Under the pieces are notes generated by a model. The model was not told the DNA's origin. It saw only the letters and a program-made list of their open reading frames with translations, and made no database searches. The position numbers were made by a program, and so were the translations under genes. A DNA stretch of 60,574 nt, counting the filler, from Sphacelaria rigidula (Eukaryota), in NCBI GenBank assembly GCA_964200075.2. It is 9 parts of 9 records of this genome, joined end to end, with 100 filler letters (N's around TTAATTAATTAA, not from the genome) between each part and the next. Parts side by side here need not be neighbours in the genome. Positions count along the whole stretch, not along the records: positions 53,934 to 60,574 come from CAXNAA020018884.1; 8 more parts are not named here. One strand, 5' to 3'. Shown one piece after another: positions 5,791-60,574 of this stretch; position 1 is the stretch's first letter, and every line of letters starts with the position of its first letter.

Positions 5791-6461
5791 AGCCTGGTGA
5801 GGAAGCATTGACTTACCAGCGGGCAGTATAGACCAGCGCTTTCCGGCATGGTGGCTATCACGCGAAAGGTGCGTGAGCGTTGTAGCACCATTGAAACGCG
5901 GACCGTCTCTCGCATGAGGAAAAACAGCGGCAGCCGCAGCAGCAGTATCGGCACCGGCTGATTAAGACCCACCCCCGGCCGTAGACATTTACTGGCAAGA
6001 AAGATACTGCTGCTGCTGCTGCTGCTGCTGCTTCTCGTGCGGGAGACGGTCCGCATTTCGACGTGCGACAGTACCCATGCACCTGGCGCCTTGTTGCCCC
6101 CTCCTACAGCAGTATCTAAAGTAGACTACGATCTGTTTGCGTGTTGTCACCCCCGTACAGTAGTAGCATTTTTAGTACGAGTACATATCATTTGTTTTCT
6201 CCTGTACTCAAGTATTGGATGCTGGCTTCATTCTCATCACCAGCAATAGCCACGCGTGCGAGACACACCTGACGTGCACAGCTCGCACACAGAGATGCGC
6301 ACAGCTAGCTATATCTCCCAGAACTTAGCCTAGTGAGCAAGCATAGACCCATCGACGGGTAGTACGGACCAGCGCTTTCCAGCACGGTGGCTGTCACGTA
6401 CAAATTGCGTGCACGTTGTAGCACGATTGAAACGCGGACCGTCTCTCTCACGAGTAAAAAC

Positions 6462-6495
<34 letters not shown>

Positions 6496-6552
6496 TCGGC
6501 ACCGGCTGATTTAGACCCACTCCCAGCCACGTACATCTACTGGCAATAGCGT

Positions 6553-6586
<34 letters not shown>

Positions 6587-6642: not shown

Positions 6643-6742
6643 NNNNNNNNNNNNNNNNNNNNNNNNNNNNNNNNNNNNNNNNNNNNTTAATTAATTAANN
6701 NNNNNNNNNNNNNNNNNNNNNNNNNNNNNNNNNNNNNNNNNN
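6643..6742. other. Artificial contig linker (N44-TTAATTAATTAA-N44); the same linker is at 13385-13484, 20127-20226, 26869-26968, 33611-33710, 40352-40451, 47093-47192 and 53834-53933
   Basis: Identical 100-bp spacer with stops in all six frames; the intervening segments are 6642 or 6641 bp, as expected for length-sorted contigs. Confidence 0.98.
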
Positions 6743-13245: not shown

Positions 13246-14089
13246 AGAGATGCAGCGGGCACAACATCCCGTTCGCGTTAGTAACCAGGACCAAATTTTA
13301 TGTTTGTGCAGTGCTACGCTTGTTCGATCGAATGTACAGTACTGTTCGGGGAAGAAACGTAAGACTTCAGATGAAACAACACTCNNNNNNNNNNNNNNNN
13401 NNNNNNNNNNNNNNNNNNNNNNNNNNNNTTAATTAATTAANNNNNNNNNNNNNNNNNNNNNNNNNNNNNNNNNNNNNNNNNNNNCCAACATTCCGAGCGT
13501 TCTTTGAGAAATTAAGCAAAATTTGCGTATCGAACGATCAAATATGTTGGTGTCGTCGTGGTTGATCAAATGCCCCCCCCCCCCCGAGAGGAGCCGAATA
13601 CTGAGAGAGCATGCGTCAAATTTCGAAGAAGATTCAGGGTCGTCTTGTTGTCTGCAGAAAAAAAAAGCTTGAAAAAAAAAATGTTGTTGGAGTATGCCAC
13701 TGCGAACAATGTTCCCGAGAGATTGAGTGTTCAAGATACGATTGAGAGTGAGAACCGGTCAACTAATGAATGAAGCAGTTTCAGTTCGGAAATACCCCCC
13801 CCCCCCCACGAGGCCCGACACACTTTATGTAGTAGCTTGGCACTTTTGATATCCCTCGGTAGGATATAGACGTATATCTGTAAGCACACGGCAGTGTTAC
13901 AGGCAAAGAAAAGCACACACACAAAAAATGAAGAACTGCTCAAGTAAAGTTAAAGCGAATACTAAAACTTACTCTCGAACCAACGCTGAACTCTCAATTT
14001 CACGCAAATATTGTTTACGGCGATTCCGCCGAGCGAGATATCCGGGCTGGCTGTGTCTTTCAGAGGCAAAAAAAAAAAAGAAGCGAGAG

Positions 14090-20100: not shown

Positions 20101-20226
20101 CAGGCTGCATCAAGCGCCTCATATTGNNNNNNNNNNNNNNNNNNNNNNNNNNNNNNNNNNNNNNNNNNNNTTAATTAATTAANNNNNNNNNNNNNNNNNN
20201 NNNNNNNNNNNNNNNNNNNNNNNNNN

Positions 20227-26204: not shown

Positions 26205-27095
26205 GTAAGCAAGGCAGGCAAGAATATTAGATACATTCGAAAACTGACTGTTGTACAGATTTCTCCGAAAATGTAGCGTCGGTTTTTTTTCCAGCATTGC
26301 TTTTTTCTTGTCGGAAAAAAGTCTTAGGGAAGCCGGAAAGAAAATTTAATTTCCAGGAAAGGATCAGAAAAAATCTTGAAAAAATCTTGAAAAAAAATAC
26401 CCCGTTAACCCTTTTGGGACTGAAGCTCAGTAACAAGGAGTTCACCATGTATTAGTGAAATAATCATAAACAAGTCTGGGAGCGACCTGCCCAATCACGG
26501 CGAGGCGAAATTTATCGACCACATCCGAACGACCAGTTGAGGGGGGCTGTCGACGGGAGTGATGTCACTGCAAAGTTGGTGTACCCTGTCCCTGGCCCAC
26601 AAAAAAGCCTTTGAAGCAAAAGTTAGCCCGAGTGGTCGGGGCTCGGATTCCCGATTATTTCATAATTTACTTGCATTTTATCTAAGTCCGACCTCCCATC
26701 CCCCGATTTTTTGGGGTCATCATCGTATAGTGTAAACTAGTTGATAACACTAACACGTAGTGCTCGGGGGAAATTCGAGAATAAATGCGCCCTATTATAC
26801 ATGCGGTCATGTTCACAAGGCGATTGAATCTGGCAACGCTGTCGGACGAGAGACGGAGCTAGAGGCATNNNNNNNNNNNNNNNNNNNNNNNNNNNNNNNN
26901 NNNNNNNNNNNNTTAATTAATTAANNNNNNNNNNNNNNNNNNNNNNNNNNNNNNNNNNNNNNNNNNNNGCGCGCAGTGTCTGAGATGGCACGCGGACGAC
27001 ACCTCCAGCGCGCCAAGGCGTCGCGCTTGTAGAAAACGTCAAAGTTCCGGCTGAGGTTATTGTACTCTAAAAGCAAGTGAACCGATTCTCGGCAG

Positions 27096-27725
27096 AAAAA
27101 CGCGATTTCACTGCTCAATTTGAAGTCGTTTTCCATGAAATTTTGACACGGTATACATGGGGATATATGTGAATCCCCTACCGTCTGCCCCCCTCTTTTG
27201 TTCTTTTCTTCGTATGTTATTGGTGATCAAAAATTCGGAACAGTTTTTTCTGGTGCAAAAGCGTCGACAACTCATTAAAGAAAAAAAAATGTCAAGGAGG
27301 GACAATAGGGAGTTCAAAACATACCTCATGCCCATCTTGTCGAAATTTCGTGAAAAAATACTTGAAATTCAACAGCATAACCGCGTTTCATTTTTTCGTC
27401 GCTGGTTGATCTCCACATAGGAACCAGTCTTGGACACGAACACGCGATTTAATAGCTGAGTTTCAGGTCGTTTTCAATGAAATTTTGACACGATGTATAT
27501 GATGTATGTGCGAAAACGCCACCTTTCCCCTCTACATTTATTGTTTTTCCCCCGTGAGTTATCGGCGACCAAACATTTCAGAACATTTTTTCGGAACAAA
27601 ATCGTGAATAACTCCGGGAAAAAAAATGTATGGGGGAAAAAGTAGCGTCTTGGCACATACATCCTATACATCGTGTCAAATTTCATTGAAAACAACCTGA
27701 AACTCAGCTGTTAAATTGCGTGTTC
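27096..27725. repeat. Two tandem fold-back (inverted-repeat) units of ~290 bp
   Basis: Unit 27438-27725 has >100-bp imperfect inverted arms (GAACACGCGATTTAATAGCTGAGTTTCAGG / CCTGAAACTCAGCTGTTAAATTGCGTGTTC); 27096-27389 is a diverged direct copy. Confidence 0.8.
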
Positions 27726-32266: not shown

Positions 32267-33813
32267 CTGTAGACATGCGGTGGGATGCTCAGAACGTCAT
32301 TTTTTTTTCTAGTCAATCCTTGTGTTATCCTGTGTACCCTTATGGCTTGATTTCAGTGTACTCATGCTCTTTCAGTAAATTTTTCAATTGTTATGCAGTC
32401 CAAAGATTGGATGCGCTCGTTTTTTTCTCCATGGGGCGCTGCTGTTGATTAGTATGGAGCAAAGCGTGATCACACCAGAATGTTCATTTTTTTTTTTCAG
32501 GGAATGTAACGTCGGTGGGGTGCTCATAGGGCACCAGGCATTGTCATGGTGTTTTGTTATTTTGCTACAACAGCATCACCATTATCGCAGTTTGTCAGTT
32601 GTTGTCTCGTCTGTGCTTATCTTTCCCGTTATCTTTTTTCGTCCGTTCTTGTTTGGGTGGGTTGTACTGGTGCAGTAGAAACTTTCCCTGACGTCTGAAT
32701 GCGTGTGTGTGTACATGTGATATTCCGTCCGCATGGCAGGTACGCCACGGTTGCAGTATTTCCATGTATATTGATTGGGTGTGCTGCCCTCTAGCAAATT
32801 AATTCATTCTGGCCACTTCAGCATCGTGAAACTACTGGGCCGAATTCTGGTACAGCTTCGAGCTTGCGGAACTCCATGAATTGCTGCTTGTGCTGTTATG
32901 TAGATGGACGATTGACGTACCTTTACCTTGAATTGTGGGGAATGACACCCCTAGTACGAAACAAATGAACTTCCGATTTCTCGAGAACGATAGATAGTGC
33001 TCATGAAGCCGAACCCTGTACCATTTGAAAATATTTGGTTGAAATAGGTCCATGCACGAAATCGTTTGGCGAGGCAGTGTATGAGACATGGGACGTTGAA
33101 GATGTTCGTCAGTCACCGGGGGGCGAGTGGGCTATCCTTGTGAGGAACCGCGACGGTAAATTCCTTATTTTGGTACGGTTAGGTTGTGAAGTACGTGACT
33201 GTGTCATACAGACTTGCTCATTTTATTTTTTTCAAGTCGGAATGTTGCTGGACCACCGCATGCGTGCCCGATATACTGAACACGACCACAGGGGCTTCGT
33301 GTTTCTTGGGCGTAGCCCTTCCCTCTTCTGAATATATGGATCCCTCCTTCAAGCAAATATCCCTTTTCGAGTCACCCTACGATGGGGGGGGGGATTTTGA
33401 GCCACTTCTTGCACGAAATTCCTCGACAAATCGCCGCTGAAATCAGCAACGGTTGCTCGAACGAGCTTGTTATAGGTACATAACGCTCATTCATACCGAT
33501 TGACACCGTTTTGAACCAAATACAAGCGCATCGCGAGTGTTGCAGGTCATCTGACACACTTATCAGCCTTTTTTTTCGTGCAATCAAATACCCCCCCACC
33601 CCCCCCCCCCNNNNNNNNNNNNNNNNNNNNNNNNNNNNNNNNNNNNNNNNNNNNTTAATTAATTAANNNNNNNNNNNNNNNNNNNNNNNNNNNNNNNNNN
33701 NNNNNNNNNNGGGTGCCCCCTCCCCCCCACCCCCCCTTTTTTTTTTTTTTCCGGAAGGGAAGGGCGGGGGGGGCAAGTGGGACCCCCCCCCCCCCCCCCC
33801 CCCCCGTCGCTTC

Positions 33814-35688
33814 ATGTCTGTGTTGAAGGTGCTCTTAATCCTAAAGTCGGTAGCTTCCTTTCCCGACGGAGCATATGCCTCATCACTGGTAGACCCAGGC
33901 ATGCTGGGGGCGTTGAACCGCATCGCCAACAACGCCTACCCAGGTTTCCGCCCGACAGAAACCGGATTTAAGAGTCAGTCATTACTTCTCTCTCCCACGA
34001 AGAGCAAAGCAGTAGCAACCACCGCTTCGACTTCTCTCAGGGGCGTAAAGTTAACCCAGGCCGAAATTGTCGCAATGTCTTCAACATTTGGACCACCGAA
34101 GCCCGAAAGCGCGGAGGCTAAAGTGATCTCTGACCTGGCGCGAGAGGTGTCGTACCGTATCGGGGAAGGAAGAGATCGCAGCGTGCCCTACTCGGACCTG
34201 CCTCCTTCGGCAACGATGCAGACGGCTGCGGAGCAAGCAGGTGAAGAAACTATAAAATATGAGAAGCAACACGAAGACGTATGCCGAGCAAAGACTGTAT
34301 CCGACTCAGAAATACCGCGGAGCGAAGAAACGATATCGGGAGAGAAACGATCGAACAGCAATATTCAAGGGGAGATTACCCAGGAAGGAGCGTCAACCTC
34401 CAACGTAGTAAACGCTACAGACCTTGAGGCGACAAAAACCTTTACGCCACCACTACGGGGAGGCTCGGCCGAATTTTCAGCCTCAGGAAAGCGCGGTACA
34501 TATCTGGATTGCGGTGCGACATCCTGTGGTGGTCTTGGGTTTAGCGGAGAGCACGGAGGCGTAGAAGCGAACGTGCCACATGCTCCATTTCTGGTGACGA
34601 TGGTCGATCTTCTCGAACGAGGAGATGCAAATGTGAAACAAGATGTTTTGAGCAATACGGGGAACGACGGGAGAGATGGCGTCGCGAAACCTTCCGCGAA
34701 GCACGCCGCCCTGGTGACCCCGTTGGCCTTAACGAGCGCAAGAGATCCAAGTTTCAGGGCAGATATCATCAAGAGGAAAAAGCACTACGGGCTGGGGGGC
34801 ACTGGAGAGACTGGCACTAAAGGTCTTGAAGACGAATCACGCTTGCAAGGGTCACGAACGTCGCCTTCATTTGCTCTAGTCGACAGACCGCGACCACGTG
34901 GACAGGCTCGGCGCAACATCTATGGCAAACGAGCGACAGCATCGTCACCGGTTTGTGTCAATGCTGCACAAAATCCTCTGATGGCGAGCACTCGCCCCCC
35001 AGGGAAGCACCCCGGACCGATGGCCGCGTCGCCACTGGCCGCCGTTTCGCAGAAGATTCCCGCCGCTTTCCAGGACTGTATGGAACCGACAAAGGGGGGG
35101 AACGCTGACGAGATAGCGTTGACTGCAACAAGGCAAGAAGAATTCGTTACATTCGCGCGGCCAGCAGCGCACTGGAGTGTGACCGCAAGCGTCATCGGGC
35201 AGACGGGTAACAGTCCCGGACGTGTTCGCGCAAAGAGCAAAAGAGTGCGCGTCCCCGGTGGAACCCCAGACAACCACGGACCGGTTGCCACCGCCTCCGT
35301 TGTGGGGCGATTTGCGTGCCGCGGATATCTTTTGGACCCCACTTTTTCGGACCATAACCCGATCATTTTGTGCCCTAGGCTGCCGCGAATTAGTGGCAGT
35401 AGTGGTGGGTTCAGAGAAGCGCCAGAGGGAAGCACTTTGGCGGCGCTCATGGTGTCGCAGGCAGGTCATGGGCTTGTGGGAGGTGGAGTGGCGGTGGAGC
35501 CGTTCAGGAATTCTGTGGAAGTGTTGCAGCATCAAGTTTGTGTGTCGGGTACGCGCAAAGCCGGGAAAAAGAGATTTTTTGATGAGAATGGGTGGCCGTT
35601 ATCTCCTGTAAAGTTTCACGATGTATACGATTGCGCGGACAAGAGGAAATTGGAACATGGAGAGCCCCACCTCGTACCTTTTCCCTGA
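33814..35688 (+). CDS. Large exon of an uncharacterised, largely low-complexity protein (probable exon ~33829-35535)
   Basis: 624-codon uninterrupted ORF, Ser/Ala/Gly/Thr-rich; candidate acceptor AG at 33827-33828 and donor GTTTGT at 35536; no recognised domain. Confidence 0.6.
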   Translation: MSVLKVLLILKSVASFPDGAYASSLVDPGMLGALNRIANNAYPGFRPTETGFKSQSLLLSPTKSKAVATTASTSLRGVKLTQAEIVAMSSTFGPPKPESAEAKVISDLAREVSYRIGEGRDRSVPYSDLPPSATMQTAAEQAGEETIKYEKQHEDVCRAKTVSDSEIPRSEETISGEKRSNSNIQGEITQEGASTSNVVNATDLEATKTFTPPLRGGSAEFSASGKRGTYLDCGATSCGGLGFSGEHGGVEANVPHAPFLVTMVDLLERGDANVKQDVLSNTGNDGRDGVAKPSAKHAALVTPLALTSARDPSFRADIIKRKKHYGLGGTGETGTKGLEDESRLQGSRTSPSFALVDRPRPRGQARRNIYGKRATASSPVCVNAAQNPLMASTRPPGKHPGPMAASPLAAVSQKIPAAFQDCMEPTKGGNADEIALTATRQEEFVTFARPAAHWSVTASVIGQTGNSPGRVRAKSKRVRVPGGTPDNHGPVATASVVGRFACRGYLLDPTFSDHNPIILCPRLPRISGSSGGFREAPEGSTLAALMVSQAGHGLVGGGVAVEPFRNSVEVLQHQVCVSGTRKAGKKRFFDENGWPLSPVKFHDVYDCADKRKLEHGEPHLVPFP

Positions 35689-40323: not shown

Positions 40324-40987
40324 ATTCCCGTGGAAGGGGGAAAATGATGAGNNNNNNNNNNNNNNNNNNNNNNNNNNNNNNNNNNNNNNNNNNNNTTAAT
40401 TAATTAANNNNNNNNNNNNNNNNNNNNNNNNNNNNNNNNNNNNNNNNNNNNCCTCAACCCTATTCCCAATCGTATCGAAGATTCTCAATCTCACGAAAAC
40501 ATTGTTATCTCGGAGTTAAACCTCAATTCGCACAATTTGTCGTTGATTGCTTATCCCTTTGACCGCGAGGGTAGGAGGTCTCTGAAACGGCATCATTCAT
40601 ACCCGAAAAATAAAGTGAATTATGCTGATTTATCAGATCGCTGACCCTTGCGGTCACTGTGCTAACCCCTTGACGGCGAGCAAAAGCCATCTGTTGAATC
40701 GGCTCCAATCTCACTTGAAAAACGTATGCATGAACAGATGGACTCGTACCCTTGCGGCCAACCGATCGAAAGAAACGAATCGGTCGATTATTGTAGACAC
40801 TGAACATTGATATTTGTTCTAACCATCCGACCAAGCGAACGAGGATATGTGTTGGCTTCTTTTCTTCCCATCGCGAAGAGTGAGGCAAAACATCACAACC
40901 TAATGATACGTGGCGCCATCCGTTTGAACAAGAATGTTACATAATAAGCGACACGGGATTGGCCAGCGGCGAGTTAGGCATATGACG

Positions 40988-41570
40988 TGAGTGAGCTACG
41001 AGCATGTGTCCCTGGGGTGAGCTACCGGGCGTAGCTCATCCGCTCATGCTTCCCCTGTGTGAGCTACAAGAGCTGTGTGAGCTACACATGTTTGCCTTGG
41101 GTGATCTATCGAGCGTAGCTCATCCGCATATGATTTCCCTGTGTGAGCTATGAGAGCTACATGAGCTGCACATCATGTTTGCCCTCTATGAGCTACCAAT
41201 CCGTAGCTCATCAGCTCATATTCGTCCTGGGTGAGCTATGGGAGCTATATGAGCTACGCACGTTTGCGATATAGGTGAGCTGCCAACCCGTAGCTCATCA
41301 GCTCATATTCGTCCTGGGTGAGCTATGAGAGCTGTATGAGCTACGCACGTTTGCGATATGTAAGCTACCAACCCGTAGCTCATCAGCTCATATCCGCCCT
41401 GGGTGAGCTATGAGAGCTGCATGAGCTACGCATGTTTGCCCTGTGTGAGATACCAACTCGTAGCTCATCAGCGCACGTTTACCTTGTGTTGAGCTATCGG
41501 ACGTAGCTCACATGTACATGTTTGACTGCAAATAAGCTACCGCCCGCAGATGAGCTAGCTCATGAGCTGT
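40988..41570. repeat. GAGCTA-rich tandem minisatellite (~78-82-bp period, ~7 units)
   Basis: Repeating unit GTGAGCTATGAGAGCT...ATGAGCTAC...GTAGCTCATCAGCTCATA with internal GAGCTAC/GTAGCTC inverted motifs. Confidence 0.9.
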
Positions 41571-45919: not shown

Positions 45920-46032
45920 CTGCCCCCCCCCCACATACATGCACAAGAACAGACCGCGACAACGTTCAACGAAAAAAACTTTCAGCACCTGGGGCTCGGG
46001 AACGACCAAAAGCGCGTTTTGGTGGCTGGTTA

Positions 46033-46374
46033 GGCCTCATGTTATGGCAAACAGATTTTCGGCCCACGGATTGTTCACTTTCATGACGTTTGACCCACCT
46101 TTTGACGCCCAAGCCGAAAAAACCGCCGACACACGTCTCGGACACTTTACATCACCCCACAGAGAAAAGCCTAGTCTGCTTTTCAGATTCGCTTGGCTCC
46201 GAGGTTCGATTTTTTTTTTTCTGAAAAGCAGACTAGGCTCCTCCCTGTGGGGTGATGCAAAATGTCCGAGACGTGTGTTTGCGGTTTTCTAGTTTTGGGG
46301 GTCAAAAGGTGGGTCAAACGCCATAAAAGAGAGCAATCCGTGGGCCAAAAATCTGTGTGCCATAACATCCGGCC
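46033..46374. mobile_element. PIF/Harbinger (Tourist-like) fold-back MITE
   Basis: ~155-bp imperfect TIRs with GGCC termini, short central spacer, and TTA on both flanks (46030-46032, 46375-46377). Confidence 0.85.
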
Positions 46375-47037
46375 TTAGTGGATGGAATGACTGTGAGAAT
46401 CAGCTGCGAAAAATGGCGTGCAGGCAATTGTGGCTCGCATTCCATATCGGTCAAAGTACACCAATACAGTACAGCACGACACGACACGGTTCCCCACTGC
46501 TTGTTGGTGCTTCCTCGTTAGCGTTGTACAATTGGGGGTGGGGACATAACTAAAAAACACAAGGCGGGGGACTCAGGAGCTCTAGAGATAGTTTTCCTCA
46601 CAAAAACCGTGTAACTGGAGAAATACATTGCAAGTTCCATGCTCGAATCAAATCATTCTCCCGGCCCGACCTGCTCTCAACACCGTGCCTACACCGCCTT
46701 CGGCGCGGTAGCATCAGTTACTGAGTACGTTCTCAAAGTTAATGAAGCAACATATAACAGCTAGATGTTTTTCGCCCGCTGCATCGTCTTTTGCCGACTG
46801 CCGCTTTTATTGGTCGAGTACCAGTCGGGGAAACACACACACACAGCAGTGAACACCGTGTCCACACGATATTGTGAGAGCCACATGCCCCGAAGGAGAA
46901 AAAACGATTTCAATCGGAACTCGCTGCTTATGCACAGGATCAACGTGGACGTCATGAATGACACGAGTCGCGCTTTTACTCTCCGTAGATTTTTGCACAG
47001 GGGTGTCTTCGTTCGCGGTGTATATGATATCGTATCC

Positions 47038-47092
47038 GGTCGTCCCGGTGGCTCAGTTGGTAACCTCGTAACCTTCTGATGGTTGAGTTGTG
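47038..47092 (+). mobile_element. SINE family B head, truncated at contig end
   Basis: GGTCGTCCCGGTGGCTCAGTTGGTAACCTCG is near-identical to the head at 43013. Confidence 0.75.
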
Positions 47093-47598
47093 NNNNNNNN
47101 NNNNNNNNNNNNNNNNNNNNNNNNNNNNNNNNNNNNTTAATTAATTAANNNNNNNNNNNNNNNNNNNNNNNNNNNNNNNNNNNNNNNNNNNNCGCCCCCC
47201 CCCGGGGGGGGGGGGGGGGGGGGTATAAACCGTTTTCCAGTCTGTAGGGCCCCTTGGCCAGGAAAACCTCTTCCACCGACATTATTAAAAAAGACCAATT
47301 TCTGGGCGACACAAATAGAGTTGAACCGGGGCGGTCGCACGGCATAACCGCCGCCGCGATAGATACAACGGGGGAGGCGGGAGGCAGCAATGCGTTGTTA
47401 CCACTCTGGTTATCATCTACAAGTAATATACTGTAGCTCACATACCGTGCTAGGTAACACTCGTCAATTCACTCGTGATACCTTAATTTCAACCTCTTCC
47501 TGCTACCGGACGGACAGCACATGAACGCGGCTACTCGGCACAAAAGCGCCGGCATATTTAGGCCGTGTCTCGTCGGGCTGAGAAAATACAGCCAAGAA

Positions 47599-47699: not shown

Positions 47700-48121
47700 C
47701 CCTTGACTGTACTGCGTTAAGATGGGCCCTTAGACCTTACATTGCCTAGTCAAAGCTACCAAGTACCTGTGCCATGCCGTACTGCACTGTCTGAACAGTG
47801 GGTACTGTACAGTTGTACTACTCCGTATTTCTCGGCATCTTACCATCTTGTCCAGTATTTTCACCGATATATATATGTAATATATGTATGTAAAGACCTT
47901 GAATTCTCAATAGTTTCCCATTCATCGAAGCACATTAATGAGATCACCTCAATGACGTCCAGGTTCTGCAGCGTGATTGGGTGACCACAGTAGTGCAGTG
48001 CTGAATTCAATCGACTTTGGATAACTCATCATCCGGATGATGGGGGTGTTATACTACGTCATACACGGCAACACGGTAAGTTAACCGCTGGTCAACCCTG
48101 TCCGTACATACACTTTCTGAC

Positions 48122-48433
48122 CTTTGCGAGACCCCGAACCGGCTCCTTCTCGAGTAATTCCTTCAACCCCTTCTTGCTGTTGTCCTTGATGAATAGGCAC
48201 ATCTCGCAGTCGTCCTGTTTGCGCAAGGGGTGCGGTATCGGTATACGCATGGGCTTGGCGCCCACGTTTTCAGGTATCTTGTGCAGGGAGAGCTGCGCTA
48301 ATATCACCTCTCCTTCGTCCTCCAGTAGGCTTAGTTTCTGTCCATCATCCGCATTACTTTTGACATGCTTAAGAAGGGCAGCCGCAGCGCGGCGTACTTG
48401 TGCTTCATCTAGTCTGTTCTGCTTTTCCGGCAT
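48122..48433 (-). CDS. RSL1D1: Exon 1 of a ribosomal L1 domain-containing protein (RSL1D1/Cic1/Utp30 family)
   Basis: MPEKQNRLDEAQVRRAAAALLKHV...KPMRIPIPHPL...EMCLFIKD...GLAK followed by donor GTCAGA; typical family N-terminus. Confidence 0.88.
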
Positions 48434-48678
48434 AGTTACAGATAGCCACAAGACCACCACGGTTGCAGTGCAAAGTACTCTCAGTCAAGTAGCTGGCTCA
48501 TGGCATGGTGTGCGCGCCCACCCATGTTGAGAAGTATGACGTATAGCATACGCGAAATGATGTTTCGGAACAGTTCTCGGCCAGGGGAGATGTTGTGAGC
48601 GCCTCGTTGGTCTGTCCCCGTTTACCGACTTCAGAACAGTGCATACATACGCGTGTGTGGCCTGCTTCAAGTAGTGAG
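48434..48678. promoter_or_regulatory. Candidate bidirectional promoter
   Basis: Only 245 bp separate the divergent start codons. Confidence 0.55.
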
Positions 48679-53741: not shown

Positions 53742-55451
53742 GTAAGTGTGGAGACCTGACGTTCAAGAATTTTGTTTGGTTGTTTCGCCCCCTTGTGTGT
53801 TTGCCATGATGTTAGACGGGGAATTATCGCAATNNNNNNNNNNNNNNNNNNNNNNNNNNNNNNNNNNNNNNNNNNNNTTAATTAATTAANNNNNNNNNNN
53901 NNNNNNNNNNNNNNNNNNNNNNNNNNNNNNNNNCATTGACCGCCTTTCACTCTCAATCGTATCCTCTACTCTCAATCTCACGAAAACGTTGTTATCCCTG
54001 GAAATTTTCATCACATCATCGTTTTTTTACTGAAAACCCGTGTTTGGCCTTATTTGGCCAAAAGCAAAAGTGCGGCCAGCGGGAAATGCAGAGTTGCCCT
54101 AGAACGGTCTCAACGAGTAGAGCAAGTCATTCCAAGGCGTCAACATCCGCCTAGCACTCTTTTCGGGCGCAAACCGACGGAGAAGGGCCCAAAAGGCAGT
54201 TTCGACAGAAAATTTTGAACGGCTCACATTAGAGTTGGCCTAAGATACAAAGAAGGAAATGTTCAATTGTACAGGGATTGTAAAATTCGGCGCCACGGTT
54301 GTTGTACAGGCAATCAGTGGAGCAACGCAAGCTATGTCCAGGCTCGTTTAACGTACTGCCGACTACGCCGCTTGAAAGCTACTCTCGGGCAAGACCTTTG
54401 CGGTCGGCGTTCGACGACGTGGGTCACGAATACACCGGCAAGTAGTTGATCATACTCGTAGAACACCCTCGTTTATGGATAAAACACATCTCGCCCCAGT
54501 TTGTTATGGCCTCCTCACACAGGATTTTTCGAAAGACACATACCCATGCACATACTGTACCCTGCTGAGCACGCGACCGGTTGTGCATCAGAAAAATCTC
54601 AGATTACAGGATGGCAGCCCCCGTATGGGTCACGCCAGCAACAGGTTGGTCACCCCCGGAGATATCTTTTTCACTCCGCATGCCTAGAAGGTCTCCACGA
54701 GTGTTTGATCTCTCATCCATCCCCCCAAGTTGGGTGTGGCAAACTCTTGTCCTTGTTGTGCACACACGGGAGCAGAGGTCGGGTAAAATCAACGATGACA
54801 ATAACGCCCCCCAAGTTGCGATTGGATTATTGCCGCGACAGCGTCCTTACTGCCATGCGTGTGTGAGAGAGAACGGTAGCGGTGACGGGAACGTCGCCTT
54901 GCTTTTCGACGACGTGTTCTGCAAACGCACAGAGGTGCGTCCTGTCCAAAAAGCGAGGCAGAGAGGAATCGATCGTTGCATTGGTCAGCGCCACAGTCAA
55001 GAGACGGTAACCCTCGGCATCCCGATCTTGGGGGGACTGTGCGGCAATAACTCGCCTGCCAGCACATGGAGAATTGGGTATGTGCTGGTAACATGATACC
55101 GATTCTTCCAGCGATTGGGAATCGCCGAACGAGGACACACAAAGGACACCGGCGAGGAGCTTCCTCTCCGCCGTTGTCGCTCCTCCGGTGGTGTTGTCAT
55201 TGGCAAGCGTGCACACCCCATTCATTTGGTGCACCTAGCCACATCTGCTTCACTGCGACATATTCTTTTTTCGCGAAGGCGCTTTCCCTTGGCGTAGCTA
55301 TTTCGCGCAAAAACTGGGTTTTGGGTTTCGCCGGTTGAACCTCATTTTAGTGTTCAATCCCAATTTCGAGGATCCTCTGTTCTCTCAGTATAGCCATCGT
55401 TTCCTCGCTAATGTGCAATGTATCAAACGATTTCATGCGACCTCTGTTTGG

Positions 55452-55796
55452 ATTTGTTTTGGTTGATCGATTGATTGATTGATGGATTGTCGCACTTTCA
55501 CTGATCCCCCCAGGGGTCATGATCCAGCCGTGGTCACATGATAGACGTATCTGACGGAGACAAAACAAAACCGAAACACTTGCTGACGAAAAAAAAAGGG
55601 GAAAAAAAGTCGAACAGAACGACAAAGCAGCCTAAGACGTAAATCAAAAGAAGAATGAAAGTCAAGAAAAGGAGACACAGGAAGAAATGGCCGGTCTGAA
55701 AATAAAAGGGGGACAAAGCCCAAGGGATTCAGGTCAGCAGAGTAGATACAGACACGCACTAGTGGGGACCGCGAAGCCACCGACTAAGGACATAAT
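55452..55796 (-). mobile_element. ~345-bp insertion with (TCAA)n tail interrupting the LINE C-terminus
   Basis: LINE-like reading ...MRKVN stops near 55800 and resumes as RGRMKSFDTL near 55450; the insert ends in ATCAATCAATCAATC; boundaries approximate. Confidence 0.5.
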
Positions 55797-55851
55797 CAAC
55801 AACCGTTTACTTTCCGCATTCCCCCCTCCAACACGTCCCGTTTCTCCTTGT

Positions 55852-56703
55852 TGTGGCGATTTACAGGCAACCGATTAGGCTACCGTACAGTCAGCGCTGA
55901 CTGTACGGTAGCCTAATCGGTTGCCTGTAAATCACCACAACAGTTAGTCGCTGGTTCGATTCCCGTCGGACGCACTTCCTTTGAAGAAAAAGAGGAAAAC
56001 CCTACCTCCAGTAAAGAGGAGGGTGAAGGGGGAGAGTCCAATCCCCGAGTTGACTGCTAGGGACCCCAGTGCACACATTCTGGGAATGAGTGGGGGAGAC
56101 GAGTAACTCCGAATGCATACGTGTGTCAACATTAGACCGGTACCGCGAGCGCGAACAGTTGAAGAGCGGTGGCAAGGGGAGTCGCCCTCCTCGGAGTGAA
56201 AGCGACGGATATCGAATGGCCACGACTAACTTTTGTGACGATTTATAGGCAATCGATTAGACTACCGTACAGTCAGCGCTGACCGTACGGTAGCCTAATC
56301 GGTTGCCTGTGAATCGTCACAAAAGTTAGCCGCTGGTTCGATTCTCGTCGGACGCACTTTCTTTGAAGAAAAAGAGGAAAACCCTACCTCCGGTGAAGAA
56401 GAGGGTGAAGGGGGAGAGTTCAATCCACGAGTTGACTGCTATGGACCCCAGTGTACACACTCTGGGAATTAGTGGGGGAGATGAGTAACTCCGAATGCAT
56501 ACGTGTGTCAACATTAGACCGATACCGTGAGCGCGAGCAGTTGAACAGCGCTGGCAAGGGCAGTCGCCCTCCTCGGAGTGAAAGCGACGGGGATCGAACG
56601 GCCACGACTAACTTTTGTGACGATTTATAGGCAATCGATTAGGCTACCGTACAGTCAGCGCTGACTGTACGGTAGTCTAATCGGTTGCCTATAAATCGTC
56701 ACA
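55852..56703 (+). mobile_element. Tandem non-autonomous element: three 88-bp palindromic terminal repeats (55852-55939, 56234-56321, 56616-56703) and two 294-bp bodies
   Basis: 382-bp period; TGT...ACA termini; loop-less palindromes centred on AGCGCT; flanks TTGT/TTGC whose collapse restores the LINE frame (ELHKEKRDVLEG). Confidence 0.9.
55909..55963 (+). promoter_or_regulatory. Pol III type-2 internal promoter (A box + B box)
   Basis: TAGCCTAATCGG (55909-55920) fits TRGCNNARYNGG; GGTTCGATTCC (55953-55963) is a canonical B box; repeated at ~56291-56345. Confidence 0.7.
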
Positions 56704-59700
56704 TTGCGCAGTTCCCATTCTGCCACTTTATGAGTTCTACTCTCCATTGCTTTGCCACAGGGGCACTTCTATGCATCTACTTCCCCCTCCTTTCGACTAC
56801 TGGTGTATCCCCTTCTTCCTGGCAGGTCCAGTGCTCCCACCCAAAATCACAGTTTCATATTTTTCGCCGAGTCTATTGGGCCATGCAGATACATTTTTAT
56901 CCCTATCCCCTCTCAAAACCCCCCGTATATCTTCGGGTGTTCTTCCGCGTCCACTTTCCGTCTTAGCGCTTCTTGTCCCTTGTTTCTATCATGTTTCTTA
57001 ATTCTGTCTTGTAGCTGCCACATTCACCTGTGGACATCTTCTCGTCTTGGTGTTGACCCATGTCCTTCCATACTTTCTCCATGTCTCAATCCCACCTTAT
57101 TCCAGTCTGCCCTTTCGTCACTTTCTTCCGTACGGCCCTTTCAACTATGGCTGGCAATTTCGTTTTTGACATTCTCCTTGCGGTACATTTCCATTTCAAT
57201 TTTTCATGTCTATGTTCTAAGTGCGTACAACCCCAACTCCGCTATCAATGCGGTATTGCTCGTCATTTTTGAACATCCTAGTATTTTCTTAGCTGCTGTC
57301 ATGTGTAATGTTTCTGGCTTCTTCGCCGACTTCGTGTTCCCCTCCCATACTTCTCCTGCAGATGCCAGCTTTCGGTACAATCACATTTATCGGAATACAT
57401 CTCCCTAACACTTGTATCTAGGTGCGAATCGCGTAGGATCACTTTCATCTTGCCTCTGTGTCTTACCCTTTTCCTTTACTTTATTTTTGTGTGTACCCCA
57501 AAAATAGTTTCTTTAGATCTCTACGCCAAATTATGTACGCTGGTCTACGATCGGCAGTTCCTCTTCTCCCCTCTTCCATTCGAAATCTACGGGGTTTCCC
57601 TTGTCTTCGTCACATACAAGTACCGCGCGTTTGTCTTCAATCGCTGCCACTCTTCGTTCCTTAGTGTGTTTCAGGGCCTTCTCTATTTGCTTCTATAACC
57701 CTCCTGGTGCTTCTGAAATCCCCACAAAATCATCCGCGAAAGTCAATTCCGATACCGTATTTTCCACACCTTGACTCCTTGATTTGCTGCTTCTATTGCT
57801 ATTATCAGGTCATCAATGAATAATTTGAATGCAGTGGATGGTTATGTACATCCTGGTGTTTCTCCTGGGGAAATATAAAAATATTTCGATATTTTCCCGT
57901 CTAGTATCATAGCACAGTTTGAGTATATCTGTCGTCTACTTCACCACTCTCCACATTTCCCCTCCGATCCCAGTTTCTCACAACTTTTTCCACAGCCCAT
58001 TTCTCCTTACTGCCATAGCCCTTTTGTACGTCCAGAAAGAAACAGTACGTTGTCAGCCCGGCGTCTTTCCTACCTTAAACAAATTTACCTCATGTGTGGA
58101 CATGGTCTACGCAACTACAGTTTGGCCTAAAATGTGCCTGCCCCTCGCTCCTTCTCTCCGCCTCTTGGGTGTGTACTCGTTTTCCCAGATCCAGTTATGC
58201 AGCATAACCATAATCTTAATCATTCCCTTTTCCCGTAATTCAGACATTCGTTCACCATGTCGTCTGCCCCTCATGCCTTCCTGATCTTGGGTTTAGCTCT
58301 ACACTCCTTTATTTCATCTCTGGTAAACGCTCTCCGCTATTCTTCGAAGCCACTATCCTCCCGTTTTGATGCCCCTACATTTGACTCTGCCCACGCATTG
58401 ATTTCTTTCTCAAACCTCGTGTCGAACATCTCGTTAGTTTTTGGTGTTCCTAGTTCACGATATTGCTCCACTAGTACTGCTCTCGTCCCCCTCGAAATAC
58501 TAACCAATTTACCGCTCTTTGCCCGTAGTGTGGCTATCCCCTTGTCTACCTTTCCTGCCCGGTTTCTCATTGACCCTATTTTATCCCTACCCGCATTTGC
58601 TTTGTCCCACCATCGAAATATTCATTTGCTTTATTCACTACATCTTTCCGTCTTCTCTTTTTTTCTTCTCTGCCTTCTTTTGTACTTCATTTCGAGCTTT
58701 AACATGCTCCTCCCATCCTACCGTAGTTTTAGTCGAAATATATCTTACGTGTGCCTCTCTTCTTACTCTTACGACCTCTTTCTGCCTCCTCATCCCACCA
58801 TTTTATTGCTCTGTTGCATACGATCAGTTTCTTTCGGATGACCTTGCTCGCTTTGGTCTTGACCAACTGCTCGCATCCTTCTCTATTCTTCGCTCTTGTT
58901 CGATCTAATTCCATTTCGGGGTGAACTGTACCTACGCTTTCCAACAACTCGCAACATTTGACCGAAGTTTTGGTCATATCTTCTTGGATCCCTTCCCGTA
59001 TTTCTTGTATTTCTAGCTCATCTATTCTCCATTTGTACAACTTCCTACCCCGCTTATTTATTTTCTTTAGCTCTCGTCTGTTGGCTGTCTGTTCACAGTA
59101 GGCAATGATCTGTGCTTCCCACGCCTTCTGCGCATACATGTACTTCCATATCCTTGTGATTTCCGTACTCTACTCCTGCATAGTCAACAATGAAATTTTC
59201 TGTCTTTTTTCTTTGCACTGTCTAGTCCATGCATATTGCGTCTTTGGCTTTAGTGTTCAATTGTTCAGCGTCTTCTCCCTATTTTCAAGGAACTTCAGCA
59301 TCTCTACCCCATTTGTGTTCTTCATCTCTTCTCCGTATTGCCCAACGATACCATCCGGTCGACTTGCATTTCCAATCCTTGCATTAAATTTTCCCACGGA
59401 CATCACTTCTCCTCGCCTTCCGTACGTTTGTACCTTTGGTGCTATCTCTCCAAACCTCCTCTGCACATTGTTTACCGTGCTCTTCGGTTCTTGGGGCATA
59501 AAGATGTTTCCTAATAGACAGCATTTCGTTCCCCGCTCTCCTGATATCCTTATCCGTATGCTCTCGTCAAATTTGGAGTCTGCCATCACTTCTATGATAC
59601 CATACAGGTATTCCTTATCTAAGAATCCTACTCCCCCCGCTCCCCTGTTCTTGGGATTCTGTCCCTTCCGCTTTTCCCCGATCCATGTGTACTCTCTAAC

Positions 59701-60509
59701 TTTGCATCCTGTTTCCACTCCCTCTTTCTCCTATGATGCTTGGATTCCCACTATATCTAGGTCGCGCTCGCTTATTTGTTCGGCTATCTCCATTCTTTTG
59801 CGCTTGTATAAGACGAATCCACACATGTTCCACGATCTTATTCTCAAGTTCCTTTTCAAATCATGATGCAGCCCACTCTCCTCTCTCCACCGTTTTTACT
59901 TCTATTTTCCCTTGCTTGATTTTTCTTCCCGTTTCCGGTTTGGTCTTTGTTTGCTTCGGGTCGATATTTCCCCTTCCCTTCCCCTTCCGGGCATTTCCCT
60001 GTTCCTGCTTCTCCTTTCCTCTATTGACCCGCGGACTACGCCTCAGGTTTGTTGTTCCATGGGCTATGCATACTCTCCATCCTACCCTTCCAACCCGTGC
60101 CGACACCTTACTTGCCTCTATTATTTCCCGCTCCTTGCTCGCGCTCTGTTTCAGCGTGACTAGAAAGTGTTCCTCCTCTCTTTCTACTTTTCCTCTTGCC
60201 AACCAGTATATTCCTACTTCATTGCATTCGTATTGATTCCGAATACCAGCACTACTAGTACTTTAACCGCCCACTCTTTACTTTACTCTCTCCATCCATC
60301 GTTCCTCACCGTCTCTCTCTCTCTCTCGATCTCTTTCGAGAGTATCTTCCGCTTGTTCATTTTAAGTATTGTCGTGGGATGTAGTCAACGTACTGAGATA
60401 TCCCAATCCTAGTACGTGTCGGGGGTCTAGTGAGGAGAGGGGGGCGTACTCATCTGTTGCTTGCCTTAGTCGTTTGACCATTGACCAAATGGAGAGAGGG
60501 CGCGCGCGT

Positions 60510-60574
60510 GGGGGGGGGAGTATACTCATGGTCATGCATACCATAGTCATCAGACCACTGACCTCGCATCCCTA
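60510..60574 (-). repeat. 3' portion of the poly-C-tailed module, upstream of the LINE ORF, cut by window end
   Basis: TAGGGATGCGAGGTCAGTGGTCTGATGACTATGGTATGCATGACCATGAGTATACTCCCCCCCC on the minus strand. Confidence 0.8.

Follow-up and report, generated by a model that had tools for sequence, protein, structure and literature searches.

A likely TRIM-like mobile element with palindromic terminal repeats in the genome of Sphacelaria rigidula

A stretch of 60,574 nucleotides from the genome of Sphacelaria rigidula (GenBank assembly GCA_964200075.2; hereafter, the window) carries at positions 55852-56703 a short block in which three 88-bp palindromes alternate with two 294-bp bodies (repeat-body-repeat-body-repeat). 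This block is likely a mobile, integrase-inserted element that resembles the TRIMs (miniature retrotransposons with terminal repeats), to which, and to their TRIMp3 group, it is probably related in kind. The fuller reading, put forward here tentatively, is that the block stems from a single insertion event of a tandem-TRIM-like element, short, without coding sequence and highly repeated, whose insertion relied on an integrase-type enzyme, provided in trans, of the DDE kind, as used by retroviruses and long terminal repeat (LTR) elements. A preliminary description had treated the same block as the source of an RNA polymerase III (Pol III) transcript whose 3′ end primes its own reverse transcription. 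The structural premises of that proposal, namely the promoter boxes, the T run, the pairing of the 3′ end and the missing primer-binding site (PBS), held up, while its account of how the palindromes arise is at odds with the outer ends of the element and with the divergence of the arms that face each other across each body (R1-L2 and R2-L3).

The window is composed of nine ~6.64-kb pieces with linkers every 6742 nt, each linker consisting of TTAATTAATTAA between two runs of ~44 N. The pieces were joined artificially, so distances and synteny across the linkers are meaningless, and the true context of the element is limited to 53934-60574 (CAXNAA020018884.1). The features discussed below are collected in Table 1.

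Table 1. Coordinates of the element, its insertion site, its sequence motifs and the joints of the window
Feature	Position	Strand	Description
Left host repeat	55711-55851		Resumes at 56708 and runs to at least 56900; contig evidence
Left target-site duplication copy	55848-55851		TTGT
Right target-site duplication copy	56704-56707		TTGC, 3/4 letters as left
Terminal repeat 1, arms L1/R1	55852-55939		88-bp palindrome; 1 mismatch/44; outer end TGTGG
Terminal repeat 2 (internal copy), arms L2/R2	56234-56321		88-bp palindrome; 5 mismatches/44
Terminal repeat 3, arms L3/R3	56616-56703		88-bp palindrome; 2 mismatches/44; outer end GTCACA
Internal domain 1	55940-56233	+	294 bp: segment b, non-palindromic core, segment b′
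Segment b	55940-55970	+	First ~30 nt past repeat (PBS position); holds B box
Segment b′	56203-56233	+	Last ~30 nt of body, inverted copy of b; ends in T run
Internal domain 2	56322-56615	+	294 bp; 92% identity to domain 1
A-box-like TAGCCTAATCGG	55909-55920	+	Matches pattern TRGCNNARYNGG; 13 nt past palindrome centre
Additional A-box pattern matches	starts 56291 (+), 55882 (-)	+, -	In arms
B box GGTTCGATTCC	55953-55963	+	32 nt past A box, 14 nt beyond repeat end
T-arm-like string	55947-55974	+	Overlaps segment b
Purine-rich runs (17, 11, 12 nt)	55983-56036	+	Not in polypurine-tract position
T run, unit 1	56231-56234	+	Last T is first T of next repeat
T run, unit 2	56613-56616	+
Linkers	6643-6742, 13385-13484, 20127-20226, 26869-26968, 33608-33713, 40351-40452, 47092-47193, 53834-53933

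Structure of the element

Analysis of the element with Tandem Repeats Finder returned a period of 382 with 2.2 copies and 92% matches, and a single repeat-body-repeat unit measures 470 bp. The direct repeats are 88-89 nt long and occur three times, each being made of two inverted arms that meet with zero spacer at an AGCGCT centre, the axis falling between AGC and GCT. Within the palindromes the arms are 89-98% complementary (95-98% in the outer two), and any two of the six 44-nt arms are separated by 0-5 letter changes. The most dissimilar pairs are R1-L2 and R2-L3 (5/44 and 4/44, compared with 1/44 for L1-R1), and the outermost arms, L1 and R3, differ at 3/44 letters. The variable sites, seven in total and thus a small sample, cluster toward the outer end of the arm (positions 5, 6, 11, 13 and 20, against 28 and 38).

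The inverted symmetry reaches beyond the 44-nt arms, to ~75 nt. Segment b′, terminal repeat 2 and segment b together form a ~150-bp palindrome (56203-56350) that matches itself at 83%, with its central 88 bp far better matched than the outer parts. Near-identity of the arms in each palindrome (1, 5 and 2 mismatches in 44) but only an imperfect inverse relation between b and b′ (30/43 aligned columns identical) show that the 88-bp repeat behaves as a unit separate from the sequence on either side of it; the edges of the repeat coincide with the ends of the insertion described below. Compared between units 1 and 2, the same segments are much closer (36/40 and 37/40). Long open reading frames (ORFs) in the piece that holds the element contain no Pfam domains, and no further copy of the element was found in the window outside 55851-56703, including by a blastn self-search.

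Insertion site and target duplication

Contigs from four public runs (X1, X2, X7 and X9) were aligned to 55700-56900 at 85% likeness. Each contig was placed at its best-fitting copy, and the depth at that place does not equal copy number; that X7 and X9 are RNA runs is a guess, and the material taken from them, too, consists of contigs. This 1.2-kb interval is extremely repetitive in the source organism, with 5665 contigs aligned from X1 and 4855 from X2, and one of the aligned runs that contain the element family is labelled algae metagenome. The public runs listed as containing the sequence are all contig sets, with no RNA run among them; protist and marine-sediment metagenomes appear in the list with small shares. 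Exact-pattern scans of metagenome, genome and viral contig collections gave 0 matches to the element.

The insertion itself is revealed by contigs that lack it. Many contigs of X1 and X2 join 55842-55851 directly to 56709-56812 and omit ~860 nt, the element block, and contigs of paralogous flank copies lead from 55851 to 56709-56747. By a manual letter count, the window exceeds the contig by exactly 4 letters in 9 of the 11 X1 joints listed for contigs of this kind, and the commonest loose-end sequence before 56716 is the left flank (47 contigs in X1 and 41 in X2). The empty paralogous sites together with the four-letter surplus identify 55852-56703 as an insertion into one copy of an abundant repeat, accompanied by a 4-bp duplication. 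The element begins with TGTG and ends with CACA (TGTGG and GTCACA in longer form), and such ends in combination with a 4-bp duplication are the mark of integrase-type insertion. Most LTR retrotransposons have TG...CA ends and duplications of 4-6 bp (excerpts of PMC12440569).

Both flanks of the host repeat (55711-55851 and 56708-56900) occur in thousands of contigs in the source organism, and in both of the runs guessed to be RNA an A-rich sequence precedes 55711. Parts of the bodies are likewise widespread: the blocks at 55946-56110 and 56163 are shared by many contigs, which continue differently at 55991, 56047 and 56163, and this suggests related SINE-like (short interspersed nuclear element) subfamilies that have body blocks in common with the element. 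One of the alternative sequences before 56047 resembles, by eye, the 5′ part of a tRNA with a paired D stem.

Several other classes of element were considered and rejected. The palindromes are not separate mini-insertions, the flanks of the internal ones being inverted and not direct; rolling-hairpin or poxvirus-type concatemers do not fit bodies that are direct and not alternating; and Helitron, Crypton and DIRS types were discarded on account of the target duplication.

Pol III-type boxes and the T run

An A box 13 bp past the palindrome centre and a B box 32 bp past the A box had been claimed in the preliminary description, and both were recovered at the expected places (Table 1). Beyond the two further matches to the A-box pattern listed there, the remaining three arms carry the pattern with one letter changed, and the B box of unit 2 is degenerate (GGTTCGATTCT). 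The distance between the two boxes is 44 nt from start to start. In tRNA, the A and B boxes start at positions 8 and 52, which are also 44 nt apart. With this canonical spacing, Pol III would be expected to start at the palindrome centre.

The combination of boxes is the only aspect of them that is unlikely by chance. Taken alone, the B box is not significant in 60 kb (2 found against 0.61 expected, with 12/100 shuffles reaching 2). The A-box pattern has 4 matches outside the element in 121 kb, from which the chance of an A box lying no more than 5 nt off tRNA spacing from a B box comes to ~4 in 10,000 by our own estimate. Most contigs (88 of those counted in X1) have C C at 56600-56601, which by our reading creates a B-box match on the minus strand too, so that the motif belongs to the inverted repeat as a whole. 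In one contig each of X7 and X9 that spans the right arm, 6 letters in or beside the A box are missing, and an X2 loose-end consensus has a diverged arm, apparently without the A-box start. Contigs of X7 and X9 contain pieces of the element, some of them crossing the run of four T (T4); as contigs reveal neither the ends of an RNA nor its strand or level, they speak neither for nor against a transcript.

The tRNA-like 3′ half that had also been proposed is present as a T-arm-like string and does not extend to a foldable tRNA. ARAGORN found 0 tRNA genes in the window, and Rfam tRNA models run on the element at E<=10 gave no tRNA match, only an 11-nt T loop; a tRNA gene was rejected on these grounds, and a tRNA-derived SINE for want of an A-rich tail at the end of the element. 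A known RNA family, ribozyme or retrozyme was set aside as well: an Rfam search of 55000-57500 at E<=1 returned within the element only sub-threshold microRNA (miRNA) hairpins, the miRNA-family matches scoring 20-30 bits against gathering scores of 60-100 and reflecting the hairpin only, and a weak RAGATH-13 match lies outside the element.

TTTT occurs on the plus strand of 55896-56703 only at 56231 and 56613, both at junctions between body and palindrome, in agreement with the preliminary description. The missing earlier TTTT is not significant: it is missing too in 3689/5000 shuffles of the body and in 568/2270 windows of 335 nt drawn from the whole window.

Pairing of the 3′ end with the post-repeat segment

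The body end had further been said to be complementary to the segment just past the repeat, and folding bears this out. When putative 339-nt RNAs of the two units are folded, both minimum-free-energy structures (z = -2.6 and -3.1) contain a helix between the 3′ end and the segment that follows the repeat, and the isolated duplexes between the two have energies of -35.1 and -36.5 kcal/mol, reached by 0/1000 shuffles. The predicted helix sets the 3′ end next to the repeat boundary and leaves a 5′ overhang of 43-44 nt. The letters that break the terminal 12-bp helix in the window (55941 C and 56330 C) are minority variants, the pairing letter being found in 42 and 76 X1 contigs, respectively. Pairing of the 5′ end was no better than in shuffles (the first 20 nt past the centre against the 25 nt past the repeat; 272 and 446 of 1000 shuffles as good), so that priming from the 5′ end, as in Tf1, was rejected, the palindrome centre being assumed as the start.

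The weight of this pairing is limited by the layout itself. The pairing segments and the TTTT form the outer part of the ~150-bp palindrome, TTTT being the complement of the AAAA that follows the repeat, and therefore the two are not independent features. The pairing equally describes an inverted repeat at the DNA level, and any inverted-repeat DNA element would show both.

Interpretation and alternatives

The TRIM-like interpretation rests on layout and insertion signature. Direct terminal repeats surround a short non-coding domain within a total of <1 kb, and TG...CA termini are combined, in the one insertion, with a target-site duplication in the 4-6-bp range. Tandem forms are known from such elements, TRIM arrays following the formula TDRx_I(x-1) in biv-TRIM, and TRIMs with no recognisable PBS have been described (excerpts of PMC6934838). 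Short Cassandra arrays consist of about three LTRs (excerpts of PMC7215508), and the TRIMs with a Pol III promoter, that is TRIMp3, comprise Cassandra (5S type), Helenus (tRNA type) and Ajax (excerpts of PMC10886601). With the TRIM layout present, PBS and polypurine tract (PPT) absent and the B box outside the repeat, the element is filed as one that works like a TRIM or TRIMp3, and not as a member of Helenus.

Briefly, like other TRIMs the element would move through RNA, possibly transcribed from its own Pol III-type promoter as has been proposed for Cassandra, Helenus and Ajax. Copying and insertion would be carried out by the reverse transcriptase (RT) and integrase of an autonomous LTR retrotransposon that makes 4-bp duplications. 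The only visible candidate primer is the 3′-terminal segment b′, which may pair with b at the repeat boundary, and the form with three repeats could, like other TRIM arrays, owe its origin to unequal recombination or to read-through.

A considerable number of observations weigh against this interpretation. The target duplication is imperfect, with 3/4 letters matching in the single insertion examined, and the joints rest on short contigs that have 18-46 nt on the shorter side and come from paralogous copies at 85% likeness. No tRNA-type PBS follows the 5′ repeat, as the preliminary description had noted: there is no TGG within 12 nt of the repeat, and the first, 13 nt past it on either strand's reading, sits in the T-loop motif of the sense strand. 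No PPT precedes the 3′ repeats, both of which are preceded by 10/20 purines, and purine runs of >=9 nt occur only 44-97 nt past the 5′ repeat. At 88 bp the repeat is shorter than the usual TRIM range of 100-250 bp (excerpts of PMC6934838). In the literature searched, the supplement tables of PMC10886601 excepted, there is no description of a palindromic LTR or of a TRIM or miniature inverted-repeat transposable element (MITE) with this architecture; on palindromic LTRs, only software papers and an integrase-site structure came up. The two strands are symmetric, a trait usual in DNA transposons with inverted repeats but not in LTR elements; the combination of TGTNR ends and a 4-bp duplication is found in Ginger DNA transposons as well (excerpts of PMC2836005); and a Pfam scan of the ORFs in the window identified no RT, integrase or transposase.

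Some of these points would be natural features of a non-autonomous cut-and-paste transposon (a MITE or foldback element) moved by an integrase-like DDE transposase, for instance that of Ginger, an origin that we regard as possible but rather unlikely. The 44-nt terminal inverted repeats (TIRs) of this transposon would be the outward arms of terminal repeats 1 and 3, the interior would be a tandem duplication of a unit with ~75-nt inverted ends, and the tRNA-like boxes would be what is left of a SINE or tRNA sequence that the inverted repeat had captured. Such a transposon would account for the symmetric strands and for inverted repeats that extend from 44 to ~75 nt, needs neither the PBS nor the PPT that are missing, and agrees with the B-box match on the minus strand of most contigs; TGTNR ends, TIRs of 40-270 bp and 4-bp duplications are the features that define Ginger1 and Ginger2 (excerpts of PMC2836005), and other hairpin-type repeats exist in the window (46032-46375 and 27438-27725). 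It fits less well that each TIR is directly followed by its own inverse and that a complete palindrome stands between the bodies, which is the LTR-like pattern of direct terminal repeats. The target TTGT is neither CCGG/CCGT, as in Ginger1, nor RTATAY, as in Ginger2, and the internal palindromes lack direct 4-bp flanks and so are not mini-insertions of their own. Variation among the arms is moreover concentrated, in a small sample, at the outer end, the part in which a transposase site should show the strongest conservation.

The self-priming model of the preliminary description is a reasonable hypothesis but appears quite improbable as it stands and would need to be modified. It holds that a ~340-nt Pol III RNA runs from the palindrome centre to T4 and folds its U-tail back onto the post-repeat segment, and that RT extends it over the 44-nt overhang, creating the arm and hence the palindromes. 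The tRNA-like spacing of the boxes, with the centre 13 nt before the A box as expected of a Pol III start, the restriction of T4 to the body end, the predicted helix with its 3′ end beside the repeat boundary and its 43-44-nt overhang, and the minority status of the two helix-breaking letters are all consistent with this model, as is the lack of a tRNA PBS, a PPT or any other visible primer site. The arms are also far more alike than b and b′, which would follow from the regeneration of one arm on the template of its partner. Against the model speaks its product, which would be arm-body-arm with ends at the palindrome centres, while the actual insertion is bounded by the outer ends of whole palindromes; self-priming as stated does not yield the outer ends observed. 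The pairs predicted to be template and copy, R1-L2 and R2-L3, are the very pairs that differ most (5 and 4 of 44), albeit over only 7 variable sites. Given the ~150-bp palindrome, the pairing and T4 need no separate explanation, the missing earlier T4 is not significant, and the B-box motif is apparently not confined to one strand. The 6 letters missing in or beside the A box in one X7 and one X9 contig and the diverged arm of an X2 consensus count against the model as well.

An extended form of priming, which is inference only and which we consider distinctly doubtful, would account for the outer arms, unlike simple self-priming. Under this scheme the element would be a TRIM-type retroelement that dispenses with a tRNA primer and a PPT thanks to its palindromic terminal repeat. 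The T4-terminated Pol III RNA, from centre to body end, would serve as primer in cis or in trans, with its 3′ end on the 12-30 nt past the repeat, and removal of the primer would set the TGTG and CACA ends. On a read-through RNA, produced from arrays or past a weak T4, the 44-nt strong-stop DNA could transfer to the next arm, which is possible since an arm is its own complement. The palindromic repeat could supply the homology for both strand transfers, the same primer and repeat could serve the second strand, and the product would carry a complete palindrome at each end.

That the block is merely an immobile piece of a tandem repeat or satellite, descended from a SINE related to tRNA, placed by recombination or by inverted duplication at the SINE 5′ end and with no transposition ends of its own, is very improbable: the tandem structure with its 382-nt period and the recurrence of body parts in contigs with other continuations (loose ends at 55991, 56047 and 56163), which marks these blocks as shared with other subfamilies, suit it, but both boundaries are the outer ends of complete palindromes, the flanking 4-mers match at 3/4 letters and the 4-nt surplus over empty sites is seen in 9 of the 11 listed joints.

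Other features of the window

Apart from the palindromic element, the window contains further repeats. One, at 46032-46375, is a 344-bp hairpin-type repeat, probably of the foldback or MITE type, whose 156-nt arms are 87% complementary and enclose a 32-nt loop with a run of T11; it is unrelated in sequence to the palindromic element. At 27438-27725, ~290 bp with the look of a MITE consist almost entirely of two nested pairs of inverted repeats (48 nt, 94%; 50 nt, 86%). A tandem repeat of period 85/172 with 3-5 copies and 71-83% matches occupies 41030-41541, and blocks of CAG/CTG microsatellite lie as inverted repeats with shared flanking 20-mers at 5893-6585.

The only trace of a conserved protein in the window is a sub-threshold Ribosomal_L1 match on the minus strand at 48095-48484 (22.8 bits against a cut-off of 32.2), perhaps an exon. 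A 624-aa ORF at 33814-35688 has no Pfam relative and no usable match in the protein atlas. Downstream of the element the plus strand is rich in C and T over a length of about 3 kb, with strong strand asymmetry at 58001-60000 (GC skew -0.36, AT skew -0.38), and the open frames in this stretch gave no Pfam match.

Significance

TRIMp3 was defined only in 2024, and all members reported so far, whether in plants, fungi or animals, have both a tRNA PBS and a PPT (excerpts of PMC10886601). Relative to that group, the element from this marine and very repeat-rich eukaryote is new in its fully palindromic terminal repeat, in a promoter that straddles the repeat boundary and in the lack of PBS and PPT, and it carries the same insertion signature. 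With PBS and PPT missing, a retroelement would need some other form of priming, for which the helix between the 3′ end and the post-repeat segment is a concrete and testable candidate. Should the extended form of priming prove true, it would constitute a third mode of LTR-type RT priming beside tRNA priming and the 5′-end self-priming of the Tf1 type. Should the element instead be a DNA transposon, LTR-like and TIR-like architectures would coincide in a single element and confuse automatic classification. Standard finders of LTR elements, TRIMs and MITEs would probably mis-file the family.

Comparison with known systems

The closest comparison is with Helenus and the TRIMp3 group, which likewise are short and non-coding and have direct repeats at their ends along with A and B boxes of the tRNA-like type; the 470 bp of the element fall within the 311-1263 bp of Helenus, animal Helenus elements make 4-bp duplications, and tandem arrays are described (excerpts of PMC10886601). 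Helenus differs in having a whole tRNA-like sequence inside the LTR, a tRNA-complementary PBS as well as a PPT (same excerpts). In the element, by contrast, the A box lies inside the 88-bp palindromic repeat and the B box outside it, so that the two are not enclosed in the repeat as they are in the LTR of Helenus and TRIMp3. In Helenus, Kojima 2024 could detect no complementarity of the PBS to the tRNA-like part (excerpts of PMC10886601), whereas the post-repeat segment of the element pairs with the end of its internal domain.

Cassandra shares with the element the Pol III motifs within a TRIM, arrays of about three LTRs and transcripts predicted to form stems between repeats, and differs in its 5S-type boxes and terminator in the LTR, its tRNA-Met PBS (part of the search pattern), its non-palindromic LTRs and its occurrence in plants (excerpts of PMC7215508). 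The biv-TRIM elements of bivalves are similar in their TDRx_I(x-1) arrays and in the lack of an identifiable canonical PBS, and inverted repeats of their inner domain have been discussed as something that might take the place of a PBS; the excerpts of PMC6934838 report no Pol III boxes for these elements, and their terminal repeats are not palindromes. Tf1-type elements are listed in the same excerpts as self-priming (PMC6934838). In the element under study, it is the 3′ end alone that is predicted to pair just past the repeat, while Tf1 uses the 5′ end of the RNA. Reverse transcription of Tf1 is primed by the 5′ end of its own RNA, and Tf1 has no tRNA PBS.

Ginger1 and Ginger2 resemble the element in TGTNR termini (TGTGG and TGTGA in the element), TIRs of 40-270 bp and 4-bp duplications, produced by an integrase-like transposase (excerpts of PMC2836005). 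The element departs from them in its target TTGT and in its hairpin-like, fully palindromic ends that recur internally. The tRNA-derived SINEs (SINE2), finally, have A and B boxes at tRNA spacing, a tail that is A-rich or similar to a long interspersed nuclear element (LINE), and a duplication of variable length. The spacing of the boxes, a tRNA-like head that does not fold and a high copy number are reminiscent of this class; in place of the A-rich or LINE-like tail and the long, variable duplication, the element is bordered by TG...CA ends and a 4-bp duplication, and it carries terminal repeats.

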